Part shown: positions 14,201 to 48,006 of the stretch, piece by piece | Layout: each line of letters starts with the position of its first letter | Position numbering within the stretch: the stretch's first letter is position 1 | Assembly (NCBI RefSeq): GCF_963506605.1 | Contig: NC_083292.1 | Location: 15,004,001 to 15,068,000 of the forward strand | Length of the DNA: 64,000 nucleotides | DNA from: Zootoca vivipara | Taxonomy: Eukaryota | Reading direction: 5' to 3' | Position numbers and translations under genes: made by a program | The notes under the pieces: model-generated | Databases searched by the model: none | What the model saw: only the letters and a program-made list of their open reading frames with translations | Told to the model about the DNA's origin: nothing

Positions 14201-17200
14201 AGGATGGCTTGGAATCCAGAGCAAACGAGAGCCACGGTGAAGAGGAGGAGACGCTGAAGTCGCCAGAGGATCCAAAGGAAACCCCCCCACCTCCCAACAC
14301 AATTGTTATTGGCGACTGGGGTCTGAAGGCAGCGCAGAAGAAGAAGAAGGTAGCTCACTTAAGGCTTGAGCTGATAGTCTGTTCTCAACATGCTTTGTCA
14401 AAGGCTCAGCCACACTGCTCTGCTGTGAGGTCAGTGATGCTTCTTTACTGAAGCAACCCTTGGAGGGTCAAGGTGACAGCTGGGTTTGGCTATCTGTTCA
14501 TTGCAGGGATTGGAAACCTGTGGTGCTCCCTAGATGATGCTGAACTACAATTCCCATCATCCCTGAACATTGGTCATAGCGGCTGTGACTGATGGGGGCT
14601 GGAATCCAATAGCTGGAGGGCTGCAGATATCCCCCTCCCCACCGCTAATGTTCATATTAATAATAAGCACATGTATAGCTTGGGACCCAGGTGGCGCTGT
14701 GGTTAAACCACTGAGCCTAGGGCTTGCTGATCAGAAGGTTGGCGGTTCGAATCCCTGTGACGGGGTGAGCTCCCGTTGCTTGGTCCCAGCTCCTGCCAAC
14801 CTAGCAGTTCGAAAGCACATCAAAATGCAAGTAGATAAATAGGAACCGCTACAGCGGGAAGGTAAACGGCGTTTCCATGTGCTGCTCTGGTTTGCCAGAA
14901 GCGGCTTTGTCATGCTGGCCACATGACCTGGAAGCTGTACGCCGGCTCCATCGGCCAATAATGCGAGATGAGCGTGCAACCCCAGAGTCGGTCACGACTG
15001 GACCTAATGGTCATGGGTCCCTTTACCTTTACCTTATAGCTTGCTTCATATCACAGAGCCATCAAAGCCTTGGTTTGGTGCCTGAGCATAGCACCCTTTT
15101 AATTCCTTTACCCCATTAGTTTCCTCTCTTTTTCGACAACCGGGACCAAACCTTGTTGAAGCTCAATAGAGGGAGATTCCATGGAAGCAAAACCTTTCAG
15201 CTGGGACATTGGGCCTGGATTTGCCCTCAGGGTGGAGTTGCAATGTTCCTTGTGGCATCTTGTGTGGGGGCAGAGGTGTGTGCGCGCCTGCAGTTCTCTT
15301 GAGTCCACAGTTCCAGCATCACATGTGTGTCTGTCATTTCCAGGTGGAGCCTCTTCTGCCACGCTGGCTGGCTGAACCTAAGTTGGTCCAGAGGCGGATC
15401 AAAGAGAATGTTGTCCCACTCCAAGATGTTCCAGTAATCCATCCAAAATTGAGGAAGAAACTGCAAGCAAATGGAATAGAGTCTTTGTTTCCAGGTATCA
15501 TCATAGTGGGATTTCCCCCCCCCCCTCTTCTATGCTTTTAAACCCGTATTTAGAAGATGGCCAGAGTTTGGGAGATGGATGGATACCAATGGTTTATGCC
15601 TAGCAGACAGGGACCTCTGCTCTTTAAATGAACGTTGATGGGAGTCGCTCCCATTGGTGCTTCAGTTGTAACCTCTCTGCAGTGTTTGATGTGGTGTCAA
15701 ACTGAGGAAGCACAGTTTTATCCACAGCAAATTATTTAGCTGGGCTAGAATGTCAATGAAATACCTGGATGTAAACGTGGACCTGCACCTCTCATCCCAC
15801 AGCAAGTTCCACCTCAAGTGTGTGGATCCATTCGAATGTGATGAGAGAGAAGCAACCCCACCTTTCTCAGAACTCTGGTTGCAAAGGAGCCAGAGGGCTG
15901 TAGGTATCCTTCACGACACCATTTAATAAATTCTGCCCAGAAATAATGAGCCAGCTGCTGGCCCTGGCCCTGGACCTTTGTTCTGGGTGCTCCAGGAATC
16001 TCTCTATAAAGAGATCAAGGGTGATTCCCCAAGACACCTAAGTGCCCAGAAATACTTTCCATAGGGCCACCCCCCTCCACTTCTCATGGCAATTCCAAGC
16101 TCTCTCTCTCTTGTATGGTGAGGCTAGGCTGGAGTTGACATGTCTGGAGAGAAGACTTAAAAGTGGATTTATTGATGGAATGTGAAGCATATAAACGTAA
16201 TAATAATAATAATAATAATTGTCACAGTGGCCGGAGTGGACTACTTCAGAGTAACGACGCTACGCAGCTCTGCATTTTATTCTTTTATTGGTGCTGCGTA
16301 TTTACAGTGCTCAAGTCATTGCTATTTACACGGAGCGATGTTGTCAGTCTGTTTCAGAACCTCCTAATGGCTTTTGGCGCGTCTTTCTCCAACACAAAAG
16401 CTTTGGCAGACCCATCCTCTTGCCCCTCCTCTTCCTGCGTAATTCTGGAGTTGGAGGGATGGGTCTTCCCCCCTTGCTTGCCCCTTCCTGTCCCACCTGG
16501 GACCCTGGCTCCTCTACCTTGCCTGAGCCTCGGACACGACTTCCTGCTTCCCCACTGGAATCGGAACTCTCCCTGCTTTCCCCTTTGCTCGGGGACGGGC
16601 TTGAACTCAGGAGGGGAGGGACTTCGCGATATCCCCTGTCCCTCACATCCACCCCCCTCCCAAGCTCTCCTTCACCCCTCCCCAGGCCCCCCCCATGTGT
16701 CGGTGACGACTGGAAGCCTAAGAACTCAGTGCTCTCCGAGCCCGTTGGTGTGAATACCTCCCCCCAGTCCTGCGAGCCCCCCCCTTCCGCCTGGGCGGAC
16801 GGGAATCCCAAAAAGTCCGTGGCGTCAGAGCTGGTGGGGGTAAAAACGTTCTGCCAATCTGCTCCTTCCTCTGACTGGGTGGATCTCGGTGACACCCATA
16901 CCTCATCCTCTGGTTCCTCAAACTCCGCTTCCCAGCGCCATGGTGAGCTGCTCTCCCGTGCCTCCTCCTCCTCCCCCTCCCTTTCCATGTGCCAGGGCTT
17001 GGGTCTGTGGGGAAAGAGGGCGTGAAATTCTTCCACCAAGAATTCCTCCTGTATCTGAGTGGCTGGGACCCATTCATTCTGGGACGGTGGAGCATCCTCC
17101 CATGCCATGAGGTACTCCAGTCCCCCCACCCCCCACCTTGAATCCAGGATGGCCGTGGCCTCATTGAGTTGCTCCCTGCCTTCCCTCTCCCCCCCTCCCT

Positions 17201-20200
17201 CGGGGGTTTGTTCGCTGTCTCGGAGCCTGCTGCTTTCCCTGTACGGCGACAGCAGCGATCTATGAAACACTGGATGCACCCTCATGTCCTCTGGCAGTGC
17301 CAGCCTGTATGCCACCGGGTTTACCTGTTGCGTGACCGTGAAGGGGCCCAGCCTTTTGGGTGCCAGCTTTTTGCACCTCCCTCTGGTGGGAAGGCCCTCC
17401 GAGGACAACCACACCTTGTCCCCCACCCTGATGACCTCCCCTTGTCGCCTGTGGCGATCTGCCCCCTTTTTGTACGCTTCCTTGGCCCTCTCCAAGTGTT
17501 CTCTGAGCTGCTGGTGCACCGTCTCCAGTTCCTCTGCCCAATCCTCAGCCTGTGGGCCCTCCTCCTCCTCCTCCTCCCTCTCCCTCTCTGGGAAAGATCT
17601 GAGGTCGCGCCCGTAATTGGCCTTAAAGGGCGACACCCCTGTGGAGACGTGCACTGCATTGTTGTAGGCAAATTCTGCTAGTGGCAAGCGATCCACCCAG
17701 TCCGTTTGCCGCTGGCTGACGTAGCATCTCAGGTACTGCTGCAGAATGGCGTTGACCCTCTCCGCTTGTCCGTTGGTCTGCGGGTGTCTAGCCGTCGACA
17801 AGCTGACCTCCACCTGCAGGAGGTTCATGAGCCGCCGCCAGAACCTGGAAACAAATTGGCGGCCACGATCCGAAATAACCCTTAAAGGTAATCCATGCAG
17901 TCTGAAAATGTGATCAACAAACAGTTTGGCTGTCTCTTCTGCCGAGACTGCCCTGGCACACGGTATAAAGTGACACATTTTGGACATAAGGTCCACCACC
18001 ACCAACACTGCAGTCTTACCCCTGGACGAAGGCAGATCTGTGATGAAGTCCATGGACACCACTTCCCACGGCCTGTGTGGTGTGGCTAAGGGCTCCAGCA
18101 ACCCTGGTGGCGCTGCTCTGACCACCTTCGCCCGCTGGCAGGTGGTACAGCCCCTTACATAGTCTCGAACATCTTCCCGCACCCCTGGCCACCAGAAGTG
18201 TCTCATGACTAGGTGAGCGGTTTTGTCCCTTCCAAAATGCCCCGCTGTAGGGTTGTCGTGCATCTGCTTGAGGACCGTACGTCGAAGCTGGGTGGTGGGT
18301 AGGTACAGCGCACCCTTGTAGAAAAGCAGCCCTCTGCGTTCTGCAAAGTCTTTTGCCTGCTCCCTCCCCCCTCTCAGTTCTCTGAAGATGCGGTTGGCAA
18401 ATTCATCCGCTGCCGTCAGTGCTGTGAGTTCTGCCTCGCTCACCACAGCTGCTCCGCAGGACCATGCCGACGGGGGGAAAATGTGCCTTGGGGCTGGTGG
18501 CGCCTCCTCCTCCATGTACTCTGGCTTGCGGGAGAGGGCATCCGCCCTGACATTCTGCTCCCCCGGGATGTAGTGTATGGAGAAGTTGAAGTTCGAGAAG
18601 AACTCTGCCCACCGTATCTGCCGCTGGTTGAGCACCCTGGCAGTTCTCCAGAACTCCAGGTTCTTGTGGTCTGTGCACACCTGGATGGGGTGCTTCGCGC
18701 CCACCAGGAAGTGTCGCCAGTGCTGGAACGCAGCGTAGATCGCAAGAAGTTCCCTATCAAACACTGTGTAGTTGCGTTCAGGCTGTGTCAGCTTCCTGGA
18801 GAAGAAGGCACAGGGTCTCCACTCCCTGTTGGCGTCCAGTTGCAACAAAATTGCGCCCACAGCTTTTTCAGAAGCATCAGTCTCAATGCGTAGGGGCGCG
18901 TCCTGCACCACATGGAACAGGTTTTGGTCTGAGGCGAACACTCTCTTGAGGCTTTCGAACGCTGCTTGCGCCTCTGGTGTCCACTTGAACTTCTGCTTGC
19001 CTCTCAGGCAGTCCGTGATGGGAGCCGTAACGCGAGAGAAGTTCTTGATGAACTTCCTGTAGAAGTTAGCGAAGCCTAGTAGGCGTTGGGCATCTTTGCG
19101 CGTCCTGGGGCTGTGCCAGTCCAGGATGGCCTGCACCTTGTCCTTGTCCATCGCCAGCCCCTTGTCTGACAGCTTGTAGCCCAGGAAGTCCACCTCTTTG
19201 GTGTGAAACTTGCACTTCTCCAGCTTCACATACAGGTGGTTCTCCTTCAGGCGTTGCAACACCTCTCTGACATCTTTCACATGCTGCACTGGGTCATTCG
19301 AGTAGATAAGGATGTCATCTAGGAAGACCAAGCATTTCCTGAAGAGGAGGGACCCCAGGACGTGGTGCATGAAGGCCTGGAAGCATGCTGAGCCCCCTTG
19401 CAAACCGAAGGGCATCACCAGATATTCAAAAGAGCCCAGAGGCGTGAACATCGTGGTTTTCCATTCATCTCCTTCCCGGATCCTGATCAAGTTGTACGCC
19501 CCCCTTAGGTCCAGCTTGGTGAAAATCTTGCCCCTGCGTGCCGCTGTCAGGAGATCATCCACTCTGGGCATGGGGAAAGCCACGGGCTCTGTCACCGAAT
19601 TCAGCCGTCTAAAGTCCACCACAAGACGGCGCTGTTGCGTGTCTTTCTTGTCCACCCAGAAGACCGGGCTGCCCCCTGCTGCCTTGCTTTCCCTTATGAA
19701 CCCCCGCTTGAGGTTCTTGTCGATGAAAGCGCGCAGATCCTCCAGCTCCTGGTCAGACATGGCGTACAGCTTGGCTGGGGGTATCGTCGCCCCTGGCACC
19801 AGGTTGATCTGGCAGTCAAAAGGCCTGTGCGGGGGTAGGTGGTCGGACTCCGCTTCGCTGAAGACCTCCTGCAGGTCCCAGTACTGCTTGGGTATTGCCT
19901 CACCCCCTTTGATATGCATGGTGGCCACCGTGGCTATCGGAGGCCCCTCCCCTGGTTGGTGCTGCATGCAATGTTCCAGACAAAAGTCTGACCCAAACGT
20001 GATGCACCTCTGGTGCCAACTGATGGAGGGGTCGTGGCGCGCCAGCCAGCTCATGCCCAAGACGATGGGGGGGTCTGAGATGGTGGTGACGTTGAACGCC
20101 AGTGTCTCTGAGTGCCTTCCCACCGTCATTCTCATGGGGGGGGTTTGATGTGTGATGGCCCCGCCCAGCAGCTCCCTGCCGTCAATGGTTGCTACGTGCA

Positions 20201-22031
20201 GAGGAAAATCCAACTGCAAAAGCTGGATTTGGTGCTCTTCTGCAAAGCTTCTCGAGAAGAAGTTGGCGGACGCCCCACTGTCAATTAAGGCGAGGACCGT
20301 CAGGGGATAGCCATTTGGGAGCGTTAGCGTCACTTCTAGAACCACTCCTGCTCTGGGAGGGGTGGGCTGGCTCTGCACCTCTCTGTGCGGGTGGGCGGGC
20401 TGGGGCTGTTGTCTGCTGACTGTGCCTGGCTGCTGCCCCTTGTCTCCTGCAGCCAGGCTTTCCCGTTTCCCTGCTGTGGTGCTGCGTCAGTGGGGGAGGG
20501 CACCACCGTTCCCGCCTTTCCTTGCCACTCCCTGCGATGTGGGCAGTCTCTGACGAGATGCTGGGGTGAGTTGCAGAGAAAGCAATTCCCGCCCCTTCCC
20601 TCCTTGCGCCTTGGCGCCGCTGGGGTTTGAAAAGCCCGCGCGCGCGCGCTATCAATCTGCATGGGCTCCTGGTCCTGGCTGGCTCCAGGCGTGGCCTGAA
20701 AGGGTTGTTGAGGGAGTGGCTTCTCCTGCGACCGTGGGAACCAAGCCCGCTTTGCGCGCGTCGCTTGCTTGTCGTTCCACCGGGATTCCTGCCTCACCCC
20801 CACCGCCAGAGCTGCTTTGCTCAGCTGATCCATAGTACTGGGCTTTGGACCTCTCGAGAGTTCATCCTTCACCTCCTCGCTCAAACCCAAGTAAAACGCA
20901 GCTTGCATGGGAGGCGAATCCAAAACCCACCCCAGTCTGTGCACCAGCATGGTGAATTTCGCCCAATATGCGCGAACTGTCATATTTCCTTGGCGTAAAT
21001 TATGCAGTTCCTCCTTAGTCTGGTCCAAATGACTATCGGACGAATACATCGTCCTCAAACCTTCTAGAAATTGTTGGACATTTTTCATGCAAGGATTCTT
21101 GGTTGCGATTAATGGTCTTAGCCACTCCCTGGCTGCTCCGGTGAGATGTTCCACAATAAACGCTACTCTGTGCTCATCATCGGGGAACTCATTCTGGTGC
21201 AGCTCAAGAGCATACACGATCTCAGTCTCAAAGCCCTGAAACTCCTTCGGGTCTCCATTGAACTTGCTTACAAGGGTCCCTGCTCTCCTTCCTGGCAGCA
21301 CTTGGACTTGGGGAGCCCCTCCCGCCTTGTTTTTCTCTGCATCCAGCTTGTTTTGGAGGTCTACCGCCACCGCCCTTAAATGCTGCTCTTTTTCCTGGAG
21401 CTCTCTCACCTGTTCCGCAAGTTGTAGCCGGTCGTCCTGGACCTTCTTAGTCTCCTCTTTAGCTGCCTTCAATTCTCCCTGCGCCTGCAGCGACAGCTGT
21501 TGCAGTTCTAGCTGGGCTTGCTCAGCGATCTGCCGCCACTTCTCCGCCTCGGACACGCTCATCCCGGCAACTCCGAAGTAGCCCAAAAATGATTAGGAGG
21601 TTGCTGTCACAGTGGCCGGAGTGGACTACTTCAGAGTAACGACGCTACGCAGCTCTGCATTTTATTCTTTTATTGGTGCTGCGTATTTACAGTGCTCAAG
21701 TCATTGCTATTTACACGGAGCGATGTTGTCAGTCTGTTTCAGAACCTCCTAATGGCTTTTGGCGCGTCTTTCTCCAACACAAAAGCTTTGGCAGACCCAT
21801 CCTCTTGCCCCTCCTCTTCCTGCGTAATTCTGGAGTTGGAGGGATGGGTCTTCCCCCCTTGCTTGCCCCTTCCTGTCCCACCTGGGACCCTGGCTCCTCT
21901 ACCTTGCCTGAGCCTCGGACACGACTTCCTGCTTCCCCACTGGAATCGGAACTCTCCCTGCTTTCCCCTTTGCTCGGGGACGGGCTTGAACTCAGGAGGG
22001 GAGGGACTTCGCGATATCCCCTGTCCCTCAC

Positions 22032-22064
<33 letters not shown>

Positions 22065-25000
22065 TTTATTTATACCCCGCCCATCTGGCCGGGTTCCCCC
22101 AGCCACTCTGGGCGGCTTCCAACAAAACATTAAAATACAGAAATCAAACATTAAAAGCTTCCCTAAACAGAGCTGCCTTGAGATGCCTTCTAAAGGTCTG
22201 GTAATTGTTGTTCTCTTGGACCTCTGGTGGGAGGGCATTCCACAGGGTGGGTGCCACTACCGAGAAGGCCCTCTGCCTGGTTCCCTGTAACTTGGCTTCT
22301 CGTAGCGAGGGAACCGCCAGAAGACCCTCAGCACTGGACCTCAGTGTCCGGGCAGAACGATGGGGGTGAAGACGCTCCTTCAGGTATACTGGACCGAGGC
22401 CGTTTAGGGCAGGGGTCAGCAAACTTTTTCAGCAGGGGGCCGGTCCACTGTCCCTCAGACATGTGGGGGACCGGACTATATTTTGAAAAATAATATGAAG
22501 AAATTCCTATGCCCCACAAATAACCCAGAGATGCATTTTAAATAAAAGGACACATTCTACTCCTGTAAAAACATGCTGATTCCCAGACTGTCCGTGGGCC
22601 GGATTTAGAAGGCGATTGGGCCGCATCCAGCCCCCGGGCCTTAGTTTGGGGACCCCTGGTTTAGGGTTTTAAAGGTCAGCACCAACACTTTGAATTGTGC
22701 TCGGAAACGTACTGGGAGCCAATGTAGATCTTTCAAGACCGGTGTTATGTGGTCTCGGCGGCCACTCCCAGTCACCAGTCTAGCTGCCGCATTTTGGATT
22801 AATTGCAGTTTCCGGGTCACCTTCAAAGGTAGCCCCACGTAGAGTGCATTGCAGTAGTCCAAGCTAGAGATAACTAGAGCATGCACCACTCAAACATTTG
22901 GAAGGTGAAAAAGTGTAAGCAAAAGAGAAAAATGGCTTGGTTTTCTTGCTGGTGGCCACCAAGTCCTTGGCAGGAGAGAAAGTAGTATACAAATTCCAAA
23001 GCCGCCTTTAAACCTTTCCCACTCCTCTTGCCCTCTTCCTTACCCTTTAAGTGGTGGGGGGAATGTTATTGGGGTGTGTGCTGATCCTGCCTGCTCTTTT
23101 TCTTCAGTTCAGGCCGAGGTGATTCCAGCCATCTTGGAAAGCGGGTTTTTGGCCGGGAGAGGTGGCTACCAGCCCAGTGATATCTGCGTCTCAGCCCCCA
23201 CCGGCAGTGGCAAGACCCTGGCTTTTGTCATTCCGGTGGTGCAGGTGAGTTTTGGGTGAATTAAGAGAGCTGCTGGCTGGTGTGTGTTCTGTGCCAAAGT
23301 AGCCTCCAGCTGTGAAACCCAGTGTGTGCAATTACAAGGGGTAGTACCAGGCTGGTGAATTTGGAAAGTGCTGTCTCAAAGGACCCCCCAGCACTTGGGG
23401 CGCATGGAGATGTGACTTAATGGGACTGTGTGTCCATTTAGCTCTCTTGGTTGCTTTTCCCACACCCCATTTGTGTAGACTGAGGAGCAGGAGACACCCA
23501 TCTCTTCCTGATCGCTGGCCTTTGTATTTTCAGGCTCTGTTAGACCGAGTCGTCTGCCGTGTGCGAGCTCTGGCCGTCCTGCCCACCAAGGAACTGGCCC
23601 AGCAGGTGCGTTACAGAGGAGAGATTTGGTGGTGGTGGTGGTGGTGGTGGGTGTTCTGCCTAGGGCAGTGTTCTTTCTGGATCTGGAGCCAATAAGCATC
23701 CCGGTGGGTGAAGGAAAACCAATGCTTTATTTGTGTAAGGTCAAAGAAATAACAGCAGGCATACATAATGCAAATAACGGCTTACCAGACAGGAGTTACA
23801 CACAATCTCCCCTTCAGCTGTCCGGAGCCCCAGGTAGAGCAGTGAGAGAGACCCCGGCCGACAACATCGCGTACCTCAATCTGTGAAGAAGCTCACTGAG
23901 CCTCTTCAGCCTACAGCTTTTATAGCCCACTTTGATGTAATTGAGTGCACCTGGTTAGTAGGCATCACTCATGGTCAGCCCAGGATACTGGGTACGACTA
24001 ATGAGGAGCAGCTGAGAGTCTCCCACTCACGGCAACTGGGTATCCTCCCCACTAGCCAATCAGCACTTGGAACACAGGAGACCCAGGAAACTCCTGACAC
24101 ATTTATTATTATTATTATTACTTATTATTTATACCCCGCCCATCTGGCTGGGTTTCCCCTGCCACCCTGGGCGGCTTCCAACAAATACCAAAATACATTA
24201 AAATATCACAGATTAAAAACTTCCCTAAACAGGGCTGCCTTTAGGTGTTTTCTAAATGTCAAGTAGTTGTTTATCTCCTTGACCTCCAATGGGAGGGCGT
24301 TCCAAAGGGCGGGCGCCACTACCGAGAAGGCCCTCTGCCTGGTTCCCTGTAGCTTTGCTTCTCGCAGTGAGGGAACCGCCAGAAGGCCCTCAGCGCTGGA
24401 TCTCAGTGCCCGGGCTGAACGATGGGGGTGGAGACGCTCCTTCAGGTTTATAGGACCGAGGCCGTTTAAGGCTTTAAAGGTCAGCACCAACGCTTTGAAT
24501 TGTGCTCGGAAACGTACTGGGAGCCAATGTTGGTCTTTTAGGACCGGTGTTATGTGGTCTTGGCGGCCGCTCCCAGTCACCAGTCTAGCTACCGCATTCT
24601 GGATTAATTGCAGTTTCCGGGTCACTTTCAAAGGTAGCCCCACGTAGAGCGCATTGCAGTAGTCCGAGTGGGAGATAACTAGAGCATGCACCACTCTGGT
24701 GAGACAGTCTGCGGGCAGGTAGGGTCTCAACCTGCGTACCAGATGGAGCTGGTAGACAGCCGCCCTGGACACAGAATTAACCTGTGTCTCCATGGACAGC
24801 TGTGAGTCCAAAATGACTCCCAGGCTGTGGCACCTGGTCCTTCAGGGCACAGTTATCCCATTCAGGACCAGGGAGTCCTCCACACACAGGTGTGTGAAAA
24901 GCAAATTATACTATCATAAATCAGCAAACCTTCAACCGGGGGTCATGTAAAAGAGAAAAGACATGTCACCTAACCAATTACAATGGTCTTCCGCGTTTCC

Positions 25001-28870: not shown

Positions 28871-28907
<37 letters not shown>

Positions 28908-31241
28908 TATTATTTATACCCCACCCATCCGGCTGGGTTTCCCCAGCCACTCTGGGCGGCTTCCAACAAAGATTAAAATACATTAAAATGTCACACATTA
29001 AAAACTTCCCTAAACACTGACCTAGTCTTGAATTGTTCACTGGAGACACTGTCTCTTATCATCTGAGAGTCAGGAGTGTCAGCCCGTGAGCCTGTCCTGT
29101 TCCTTGGCCCAAAGTGACCCTCCTCGTCTTCTCAAAGGAACTGGGCAAAAAGCACAAACGGCTCTTCTTTCCTCTTCCCGCCATAGCAATACTACGTGCC
29201 CTGCAGCCTACGCTGGAAGCCCCTCTTCCTCTTGCATTTCCTGCTGCGGCTGAAGTTCTCCCGCGTCCTCTGCTTCACCAACAGCAGGGACACGTCACAC
29301 AGGTGAGGCCGTGCAGAGGGAGCAGTGGGCTGGACTGCCTCCCATCTTTGCGGGCTAGGCTTGAACTTCCATAGGAAGCCGACAGAGCACTGGTCCCATC
29401 TGCTGAGACTGAGGATCCTTTGGAGTCTCAGCAGCCCTCCTGGGAGGGGCTGGCCCTTGATCCTGGGATCCCCTTCCTCTGCCTGCAGAGCAGGGGCTCT
29501 GCCGCTGGTCTGTGCCCCCCCCCACCTTTTGTTCTCTCTCTCCACCACCCCAGGCTCTTTCTACTGCTTCGAGCCTTTGGTGGCGTGAACGTGGCCGAGT
29601 TCTCTTCCAGGCTGAATCCAAGGCAAAGGAAGCTGACACTGAAGGAATTTGAACAAGGGAAGATCCAGCTGTGAGTATCTCCAGGGCAAGGGGGGCGCTG
29701 GCCACATCCTTATGTCTCAGTTGCACATCACACACTGGCTGCCCCTTGATCTCCAGATGTGCAGTGGTGGTAAGTTTCTGGCACAGTTGGGAGCCGAGTT
29801 GAGCCAGAAGAGGACGCACCTTTCGTGGGATGTCTCTCTTCTTCACAACACCAGAAGAAACTGTGCGAGCTGGGCCTCTTTACAGCAGCGGCCTGCTTCT
29901 GTCTACATGACAGGAGGTTGATTTCCCCAACCCACTGTCACGATTTCCTTCACGGCGCTTTAGCAGAAATGCTCAGAGTTACAGGTTCTTCAGTGCAGTA
30001 TATTTATTGTGAGCTATATACAAATATCTACAGGTTATGATACACGAGCAGTTCATACAAATAAGCAGGATACCTGGCTGCACGTTAAGGCATGTAGGAA
30101 AACTTCTCTCTCTAAACCAGGGGTAGGCAACCTCAGGCCCGTGGCTGGATGCGGCCCAATCGCCTTCTCAATCCAGCCCGCGGACGGTCTGGGAATCAGT
30201 ATGTTTTTACATGAGTAGAATGTGTGCTTTTATTTAAAATGCATCTCTGGGTTTTTTGTGAGGCATAGGAATTTGTTCATTTTTTTCTTCTAAATATAGT
30301 CCGGCCCACCACATGGTCTGAGGGACGGTGGACTAGCCCACGGCTGCAAAAGGGTTGCTTACCCCTGCTCTAAACCTCTCACTGACCACACCATAGTCGT
30401 CAACTCCCGGATTGAAAAATAAGGGATCAGCAGTGGCGCGGCACCGGAAGTCACTTCTACACATGTCCAGACATGCGCAGAAGGAGCCTCCCTGGCCGGT
30501 AGGAGCTGCTTTCTAAATCCGGGGGATTTACGGGATTTTTTTCAATTCGGGATAACGGTGGGAAATGGGTTTAAATACGGGGGTTTCCCGCGAAAAACGG
30601 GAGACTTGACAGCTATGGACCACATCCTTCTACACCACACTCACTGCTGGAAAGGTTTCCCTTTTAAACCAATGACAGCCAATCAACTGACAGCACATTA
30701 CTGCTGAGTCATTCTGACCCAGCACTCCTATAGAGAGCATTGCAGCAGCCAGTTGCAGCAGCTAGTTTCACTTTACAGTACTAGTACACTCAGACCTGCA
30801 GACTTACTATCTTACACAGCAATCTGTGGATCCCAACACCCACCACACCACAAGCCCCCAGTTCTTTCTTTGCAGACCAAGCATCTCTTTAGTGGCTGCG
30901 CTCAAATCTGCTGGGGTGACAGCGATTTCTCTCCTCAACACTCAGGTTAATCAGCACAGACGCCACAGCCCGAGGAATCGACATTGGTGGAGTGAAATGC
31001 GTCATCAGCTACGATGCTCCTCAGTTCATCAGGACCTACATTCACCGGTAATTCCTTCAGAGGGAGGCTTTCAAATAATGTGAACGAGTTTCCTTTTTCC
31101 ACAGGCAGCTTGGGGGTGGGGGTCCAGAAGTGGCAGCTCCTGGAAAAGGCCAACCTTCCTCTCTCTGTTTTCAGAGTGGGCAGAACAGCTCGTGCAGGGA
31201 AAGCGGGACTGGCCTTCACCATGGTGCTGAAACAGCAGGTA

Positions 31242-46648: not shown

Positions 46649-46699
<51 letters not shown>

Positions 46700-48006
46700 T
46701 ATTATTTATACCCCGCCCATCTGGCCAGGTTCCCCCAGCCACTCTGGGCGGCTTCCAACAAAACATTAAAATACAGAAATCCATCAAACATTAAAAGCTT
46801 CCCTAAACAGGGCTGCCTTAAGATGCCTTCTAAAGGTCTGGTAATTAAGAGCAGAGAGCATGCACCTGTTGTGAGATCATCCAAGCTCCTTCCCTGGAAC
46901 AGGTATCCCACTCCCAACAAAACTGGACCAAAAAAGAAATAAATGTCCTCATCCTTATGTCAACTCTCAAAGGGATGCTATGTCCCTTGGTGTCGACTCC
47001 TTCAAGGCAAACCTCCCCTTCTGATAAGCCTTTCCCAGAAGTTTCATCTTTGGTGGATGTTGGTACAGTTAGCCCAACTGTGTCCTTGCAGGCTGTGGCT
47101 TGTTTCTTGGGCCAGCAGCAATCGGGGGATGGAATAACAACAATTTATTATTTATATGCCACCCATCTTACTGAGTTGCCCCGTCTGCTCTGGGCAGCTT
47201 CCAAAAAATTATAAAACTGCAGTAGAACATCAAACAGGACTGCCTTCAGGTGTCTTCTAAAAGTCAGGTAGTTCTTTACTTCTTTGACATCTGATGGGAG
47301 GGCGTTCCACAGGGTGGGTACCATAACTGAGAAGGTCCTCTGTCTGGTTCCCTGTAGCCTCACTTCCCACAGTGAGGGAACCACCAGAAGGCCCTCGGAG
47401 CTGGACCTCAGTGTCCGGGCTGAGCAATGGGGATGGAGACGCTCCTTCAGGAGCAACGATGCAACAGGAGTCTCTCTCCACTTGGCCAAACCACCTACCA
47501 CACTTTCTGCCTGCCTGTCAGATACCTGCAAATGGTGGGCATAGAAATTTCCGCAGATCGGAATGTGCACAATATCTTTTGGTGTGCTAGAGATGTACGA
47601 AACACCTGGGAAACCAGCCAGCGTTTCGCTGCCACTTTGCCAAGTTAATATTTCAGGATCAGAAGTGAGCAGGCTCTCGGGTCAAAGAGTCTCTCCTGGG
47701 CTTTTGACTCTCCTGGGTCTGCGCCCTCCTTGTCGACTACCACCGCGGGCTCTGCCAGTCGCACGTGCTTTGCTTCTTGTACTTTTCTGGGAAAAGAAAG
47801 CAAAAGTCCCTTCCTGCTGGAGTCAATACCCCGCCCCTCAGCGAGAACATCTGGCTGGCTGGCAGGCTCCCGCATTCTGCAACTCCCTCGCTCTCTGCCC
47901 TGCTGCAGTTCCTGTTCTTCCTGGGAGGGTGTTCTGCCAAGAGCAGACTACGCGGAGGACAATCTCTGCTCTCCGCTGCTCTGCCTCTCCGTGCCCAGGG
48001 ACCACC

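Follow-up and report, generated by a model that had tools for sequence, protein, structure and literature searches.

HIV nef and MMTV sag have coding sequence that overlaps U3. Both are separate genes, expressed from spliced mRNAs or from mRNAs of their own. An earlier note on the DNA described here took coding U3 to be a retroviral trait that is foreign to Ty3/gypsy elements. This is contradicted by the plant chromoviruses of CRM group A: according to two papers, the polyprotein of all of them reaches into the 3' LTR, and a CR motif is encoded there (PMC3059260, PMC3605345). The second system to be considered is the Tf1/sushi group. Its hallmark is a self-primer, namely the RNA 5' end, which is complementary to the PBS (bioRxiv 2022.12.06.519325).

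The window, that is the whole stretch of 64,000 nucleotides of Zootoca vivipara DNA analysed here, contains a complete LTR retrotransposon on its minus strand (22032-16220), with LTRs of 428 bp each and zero mismatches between them. Pfam finds protease, RT, RNase H, integrase, a Tf2-like SH3 and a C-terminal chromodomain along pol. The element is a Tf1/sushi chromovirus: it has the Ty3/gypsy order PR-RT-RH-IN, followed by the C-terminal chromodomain, and it is placed in the Tf1/sushi group because its PBS matches its own LTR (a self-primer) instead of a tRNA. RNA folding predicts a U5-leader stem with the PBS in its loop (z -0.99), by a method that cannot show the pseudoknot of the three-duplex pretzel. 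The features are as follows.

21605..22032, minus strand: 5' LTR, 428 bp, TG...CA, identical to the 3' LTR
21743..21753, minus strand: self-primer, 11 nt, 5' LTR copy; complementary to the PBS; inferred transcription start and start of R
21592..21602, minus strand: PBS, starting 2 nt past the LTR end; flanking U5-leader stem predicted
20336..21562, minus strand: gag, with Ty3 capsid and CCHC knuckle
20465..20471, minus strand: GGGAAAC heptamer where gag and pol overlap; by inference a likely site of -1 frameshifting
16344..20486, minus strand: pol frame, with protease, RT, RNase H, integrase, SH3, chromodomain and a tail of ~220 aa
17010..17168, minus strand: chromodomain (Pfam Chromo, E 3.8e-6); first and last cage aromatics missing (type II-like)
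16803..16856, minus strand: TIM-like repeat 1 (WQNVF, acidic linker, FLGF)
16713..16766, minus strand: TIM-like repeat 2 (WGEVF, acidic linker, FLGF)
16648..16661, minus strand: polypurine tract (PPT), translated G-R-G-V-D
16220..16647, minus strand: 3' LTR, without mismatch to the 5' LTR
16369..16647, minus strand: U3 of the 3' LTR, coding throughout, with a conserved VR.xYRExPP start, a Ser/Gly/Glu linker and a basic end
16371..16439, minus strand: basic cluster and R-x5-L-L-x-W motif (R1357 at 16418, W1366 at 16391)
16358..16368, minus strand: self-primer sequence, 3' copy, translated P-L-G-G-S
16344..16346, minus strand: pol stop TGA, within the inferred R
16276..16289, minus strand: two AATAAA signals (16289-16284 and 16281-16276)
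16215..16219, plus strand: target site duplication ATAAT, with its partner at 22033-22037, within an (AAT)n run

The pol frame (20486-16344) runs for 1380 codons without a stop, crosses the PPT and the whole of U3, and terminates 22-24 nt into the inferred R. Residues 1281-1380 (100 codons) are encoded inside the 3' LTR, and 54 nt separate the stop from the AATAAA at 16289. The earlier note had read all this correctly from the letters: no stop before the 3' LTR, about 100 codons within it, a stop some 55 nt before the AATAAA, and PLGGS codons overlapping an 11-nt self-primer. Indeed, all 11 nt of the PBS at 21602-21592 are complementary to ATTAGGAGGTT (16368-16358), which lies in the P-L-G-G-S codons. 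The primer also covaries with the PBS, with four distinct self-primer/PBS pairs among the loci, 11 nt each, each lying 20 nt past the same Trp codon. Taking the self-primer as the start of R, which is unmapped, divides the tail codons into about 93 for U3 and about 7 for R. The differences between the primer/PBS pairs are compensatory changes inside coding sequence.

A single open frame is weak evidence. Of 5000 dinucleotide shuffles, 8.7% leave the 100 LTR codons open; 97 codons are open in a second LTR frame as well, and U3 contains about 15% T. The 218-codon stretch beyond the chromodomain is open in 0.5% of 2000 shuffles. It is the comparative data that lift the read-through above chance.

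The young family is too uniform for a test of selection: all 30 fetched copies are 99.78-100% identical over 2281 nt, with no gaps. Contig C1 alone carries at least 82 young copies, 54 of them with a pol frame of at least 1376 codons. A very recent burst of the young family in this genome can be noted here, as can one young copy nested in inverse orientation within the LTR of an older relative (L045). The 82 copies are evenly distributed along C1 (KS p 0.25), and centromere targeting was rejected for lack of any clustering along this contig. A preference for insertion into (AAT)n was likewise rejected, as most of 30 flanks are not microsatellite. The window itself holds interspersed repeats with (AAT)n heads (22060-22410, 24105-24696, 28890-29016 and 46682-47477), probably squamate SINE or LINE ends, and the element sits in the (AAT)n head of one such repeat.

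Older subfamilies were found through the chromodomain (30 loci), and the tail was recovered in 17. The other 13 were left out (nine had no tail match, two were young-family or nested copies, one was a duplicate and one a fragment), which biases the sample toward conserved copies. The PPT/LTR junction reads D-V-[RKG] in 17 of 28 loci examined; an 18th match is misplaced. Over the last 27 codons, which hold the motif block, pairwise comparison of the 17 loci with the window gives dN/dS of 0.19 in the pol frame and of 1.34, 1.43 and 1.62 in control frames. Shared variants in the same block have pN/pS of 0.33 (binomial p 2e-6; 17 loci). Among synonymous codons in the motif, four occur for the anchor Arg and five for the first Leu. 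The stop stands at one fixed codon in 14 of the 17 older copies, as TGA in five, TAA in five and TAG in four.

Solo LTRs were collected with tail queries, each of which returned about 11,000 first-look candidates. In one older subfamily group (28 of 30 LTRs used), the mid-U3 linker, which lay outside the search query, has pN/pS of 0.38 in the pol frame against 0.98 and 0.95 in the others; shared stops number none in the pol frame against one and seven (p 0.0005). The other older set (30 copies) gives a weak signal, with codon-position counts of 11/10/13 and pN/pS of 0.45 against 0.71 and 0.58. Preserved frame and codon bias in other copies and solo LTRs, to which the earlier note had pointed as a check, are evident in the 17 loci (frame kept, dN/dS 0.19 against 1.3-1.6) and in the 28 LTRs, and faint in the remaining set.

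Indels in U3 give a two-sided answer to whether the frame matters. Differences in length between subfamilies preserve it: from the LTR start to the Trp codon there are 256 nt in the window element and modal lengths of 277 (5/26) and 319 (7/26) in two older sets, all in frame. Indels private to single old LTRs disregard it, as is expected of copies that are dead after insertion, and they lend no support. In one old solo-LTR set (L091-L120), nearly all frame variation stems from a poly-C stretch close to where U3 begins. Neither of the findings that would speak against the read-through is made, since subfamily indels respect the frame and clade relatives do not stop right after the chromodomain, and so the frame is real. 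U3 is a genuine coding sequence under purifying selection at the protein level.

The nearest named proteins are from Podarcis. In three groups of predicted Podarcis muralis proteins, with an RT-IN identity of 62-69%, the PPT is read through in the register seen in the window element, and the tails continue into the LTR. Here the LTR limits come from the junction motif, seen in proteins only and not in DNA: GGMDVRG and GEVDVRE in Podarcis muralis groups, GRGVDVRD in the window element. On this basis the LTR-coded tails of the Podarcis muralis families have about 100-205 aa. They end in RKRWSKARILSW, RKRWTSTSLLNW and RRRVSVKELLCW, keeping the basic cluster and R-x5-[LIV]-L-x-W. No aligned tail (17 of 17) departs from the R, L and W of the motif; position +8 is C, S or N, and Podarcis families with ILSW and LLNW retain the Trp. 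Motif-bearing families form one branch in a quick tree (SH-aLRT 100), in which four of the eight clade rows (P0003, P0034, P0035 and P0036) are predicted proteins ending before the complete motif.

The clade differs in this from other Tf1/sushi relatives. Of 97 relatives outside it with a placed chromodomain, 78 end no more than 40 residues beyond that domain, and none of these other relatives has the tail motif. Several of them apparently stop a few codons past the PPT. A search of 1.84 billion proteins with the motif profile gave seven matches, four of them clade tails and three repeat-protein artefacts. Neither there, nor in the PDB, nor in the ESM Atlas was a host protein or solved structure found that matches the profile. 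PDB sequence and profile searches with the tail gave chance matches only (best E 0.31 and 0.68), the ESM Atlas search gave no usable match, and the tail of a Podarcis family (P0002), used as query, had no match in the genome of the window element. A separate sushi family (P0046 of Podarcis muralis, and P0043), with 52% Pol identity, has tails of 116-129 aa that apparently cross the PPT, as judged from proteins only; this suggests an independent LTR-coded tail. P0046 has an intact chromodomain cage and ends in RRSARL, which we take to be the HMGN nucleosome-binding core.

The chromodomain of the clade is degenerate. Its first and last cage aromatics are absent in all five clade members shown and present in outgroups. 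In P0002 and P0019 the middle Trp is missing too. In its cage loss the domain resembles plant type II chromodomains, as described in the CRM work (PMC3059260). Between the chromodomain and the PPT, a [VW]xxVFxPT-acidic-FxGF repeat is present once or twice in 27 of the 30 chromodomain loci; 13 clade proteins show the FxGF pattern, against 1 of 97 others. The TIMs of MLL1, JPO2 and IWS1, which bind LEDGF/HRP2, consist of a short hydrophobic segment or helix, an acidic Ser/Thr-rich linker of 8-16 aa and FxGF, and are often repeated (PMC9987994). The lizard repeats have this published sequence anatomy of TIMs (or IBMs); they differ in belonging to the integrase of a retrotransposon, where they precede the PPT. 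Judged by this likeness they could bind TFIIS N-terminal domains (TNDs) of the LEDGF/HRP2 type, a suggestion to which we give slightly less than even odds. HIV integrase contacts the same host domain via its folded core, not via a TIM. The TIM-like repeats are possibly more surprising than the LTR read-through.

What could the tail do? Our main reading, with a probability of roughly 0.55, is that the U3-coded, selected tail stays on integrase as a disordered arm that would serve in nuclear import and in tethering to nucleosomes or chromatin, replacing the degenerate chromodomain. Genomic RNA would start at R of the 5' LTR, and its first 11 nt would prime reverse transcription. At the other end the RNA would run past the 3' R, leaving a very short 3' UTR; the whole U3 would then be on the message and be translated as the end of Gag-Pol, itself presumably made by a -1 frameshift. 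The tail would probably not be cleaved from integrase. Along this arm, the acidic part after the chromodomain (net charge -19) and a neutral linker give way to an end with a net charge of +10 and the invariant R, L and W. Nuclear entry of the integration complex and its attachment to nucleosomes would both be the work of this basic end, and the short motifs (basic cluster, Arg anchor, FxGF) may together replace the chromodomain. Each round of reverse transcription places the one U3 in both LTRs, so that the promoter and the coding tail share their bases and cannot evolve apart. The earlier note had a single LTR act at once as promoter, primer and coding sequence. A coding U3 under selection stands, and three roles in one copy do not: promoter and primer would come from the 5' LTR, and the copy that is translated would be the 3' LTR. 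Three raw RNA runs from the same species contain 76, 396 and 760 matching reads, patchy and on both strands, with no start site or full-length transcript among them; in two of the three, most reads match at 95-99% and come loose at the LTR boundary.

Separate parts of this reading deserve separate weights. The Arg/Lys cluster, in the conserved basic end of the tail, probably is an NLS. That R1357 might be a generic arginine anchor on the acidic patch of H2A-H2B we consider rather unlikely. R527 of chicken KNL2 (ggKNL2) binds the acidic patch, together with F535/W536 (PMC10015371). The lizard tail shares with CENP-C/KNL2 (M18BP1) the invariant Arg, a Trp nine residues on and a basic context. 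It differs in that position +8 is not aromatic, in having no profile-level similarity and in its unclustered copies, and for these reasons we do not class the motif as a CENP-C motif. An Arg nine residues before some Trp arises easily by chance in a basic cluster. A bolder version of the story may be doubted more: that the lizard lineage dropped its chromodomain reader and rebuilt targeting from mimicked motifs, with TIMs recruiting LEDGF/HRP2 and a CENP-C-like anchor in the promoter. In that case the same bases would be at once a TATA-like box, the self-primer and the anchor on chromatin, and the arrangement would be convergent with that of plant CRM elements.

Three other explanations have to be weighed. 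The tail may be an NLS only, and L-L-x-W may be kept mainly as DNA, for the sake of a T-rich, TATA-like box near the start site. The L-L-C codons do occupy the position of such a box, about 31 nt upstream of the inferred start, and the T-rich CTTTTGTG / CTCTTATG / CTTTTATG stand at a constant distance from the self-primer in all four primer/PBS pairs. Some motif codons look constrained as DNA, with TTA in 13 of 18 cases at the second Leu and TCT in 18 of 18, and a conserved AT-rich promoter-like stretch is known from Sushi LTRs (PMC3601003). However, a DNA element of this kind would not lead one to expect five synonymous codons at the first Leu and the use of both Cys codons, nor a Trp that is invariant even in the Podarcis families with ILSW and LLNW. 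We consider this explanation improbable.

Alternatively, the tail is translated and selected but released by the protease, or acts apart from integration, as an accessory factor in the manner of nef or sag (anti-silencing or RNA packaging, for example). In favour of this, the last 41 aa have a net charge of +10 that could bind RNA, the linker is long, of low complexity and not constant in length (with some 100-205 aa in the LTR), and the insertions are unclustered (82 copies on C1). Yet the tail has no start or ORF of its own, it sits at the integrase C-terminus, the usual site of chromovirus targeting domains, and it co-occurs with cage loss and FxGF repeats, which makes the accessory factor quite improbable. 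The idea that read-through is a by-product of a T-poor, purine-rich, stop-poor U3 conserved as promoter DNA has in its favour the composition, the second open frame, the 8.7% of shuffles and the seemingly common short read-through of the PPT among relatives, but it is largely refuted by the codon analysis of the 17 loci, where synonymous excess is frame-specific and stop types interchange at a fixed position, as well as by frame-preserving length differences between subfamilies, and it has very little probability left.

We return to the reading of the tail as a targeting arm on integrase. It supplies two short motifs that bear on how chromoviruses with degenerate chromodomains reach chromatin. 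Should the FxGF repeats bind LEDGF/HRP2, a retrotransposon would have reached HIV's integration cofactor by mimicking a host motif. With about 11,000 first-look candidates, the LTR family is highly abundant, and its targeting has thus shaped the genome. Whatever the function of the tail, the element is a vertebrate example of an LTR whose promoter DNA shows measurable selection on the protein that it encodes. Our literature searches turned up neither the lizard tail nor TIMs in a retrotransposon; the read-through may be mentioned in Repbase or in Butler et al. 2001, which deals with vertebrate Tf1/sushi elements.

How does the element compare with the systems named at the outset? It differs from nef and sag in that its tail is the in-frame end of Pol. 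With Tf1/sushi elements (sushi-ichi, Tf1) it shares the 11-nt self-primer at the start of R, a U5-leader stem (predicted here), the gag/pol -1 overlap and the chromodomain (bioRxiv 2022.12.06.519325). With CRM group A it shares a chromovirus polyprotein that enters the 3' LTR and an LTR-coded integrase end with a short conserved putative targeting motif. CRM group A elements are centromeric, have a tRNA-Met PBS and carry a CR motif instead of a chromodomain, whereas the lizard element is self-priming, keeps a degenerate chromodomain upstream of the PPT, crosses U3 into R and is dispersed. The tail and the CR motif are likened here by layout alone. The read-through is real and selected, and an LTR-coded targeting motif is already known from plant centromeric elements. 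The lizard element is a member of Tf1/sushi with a layout like that of CRM group A, outside CRM, and a convergent variant of it.
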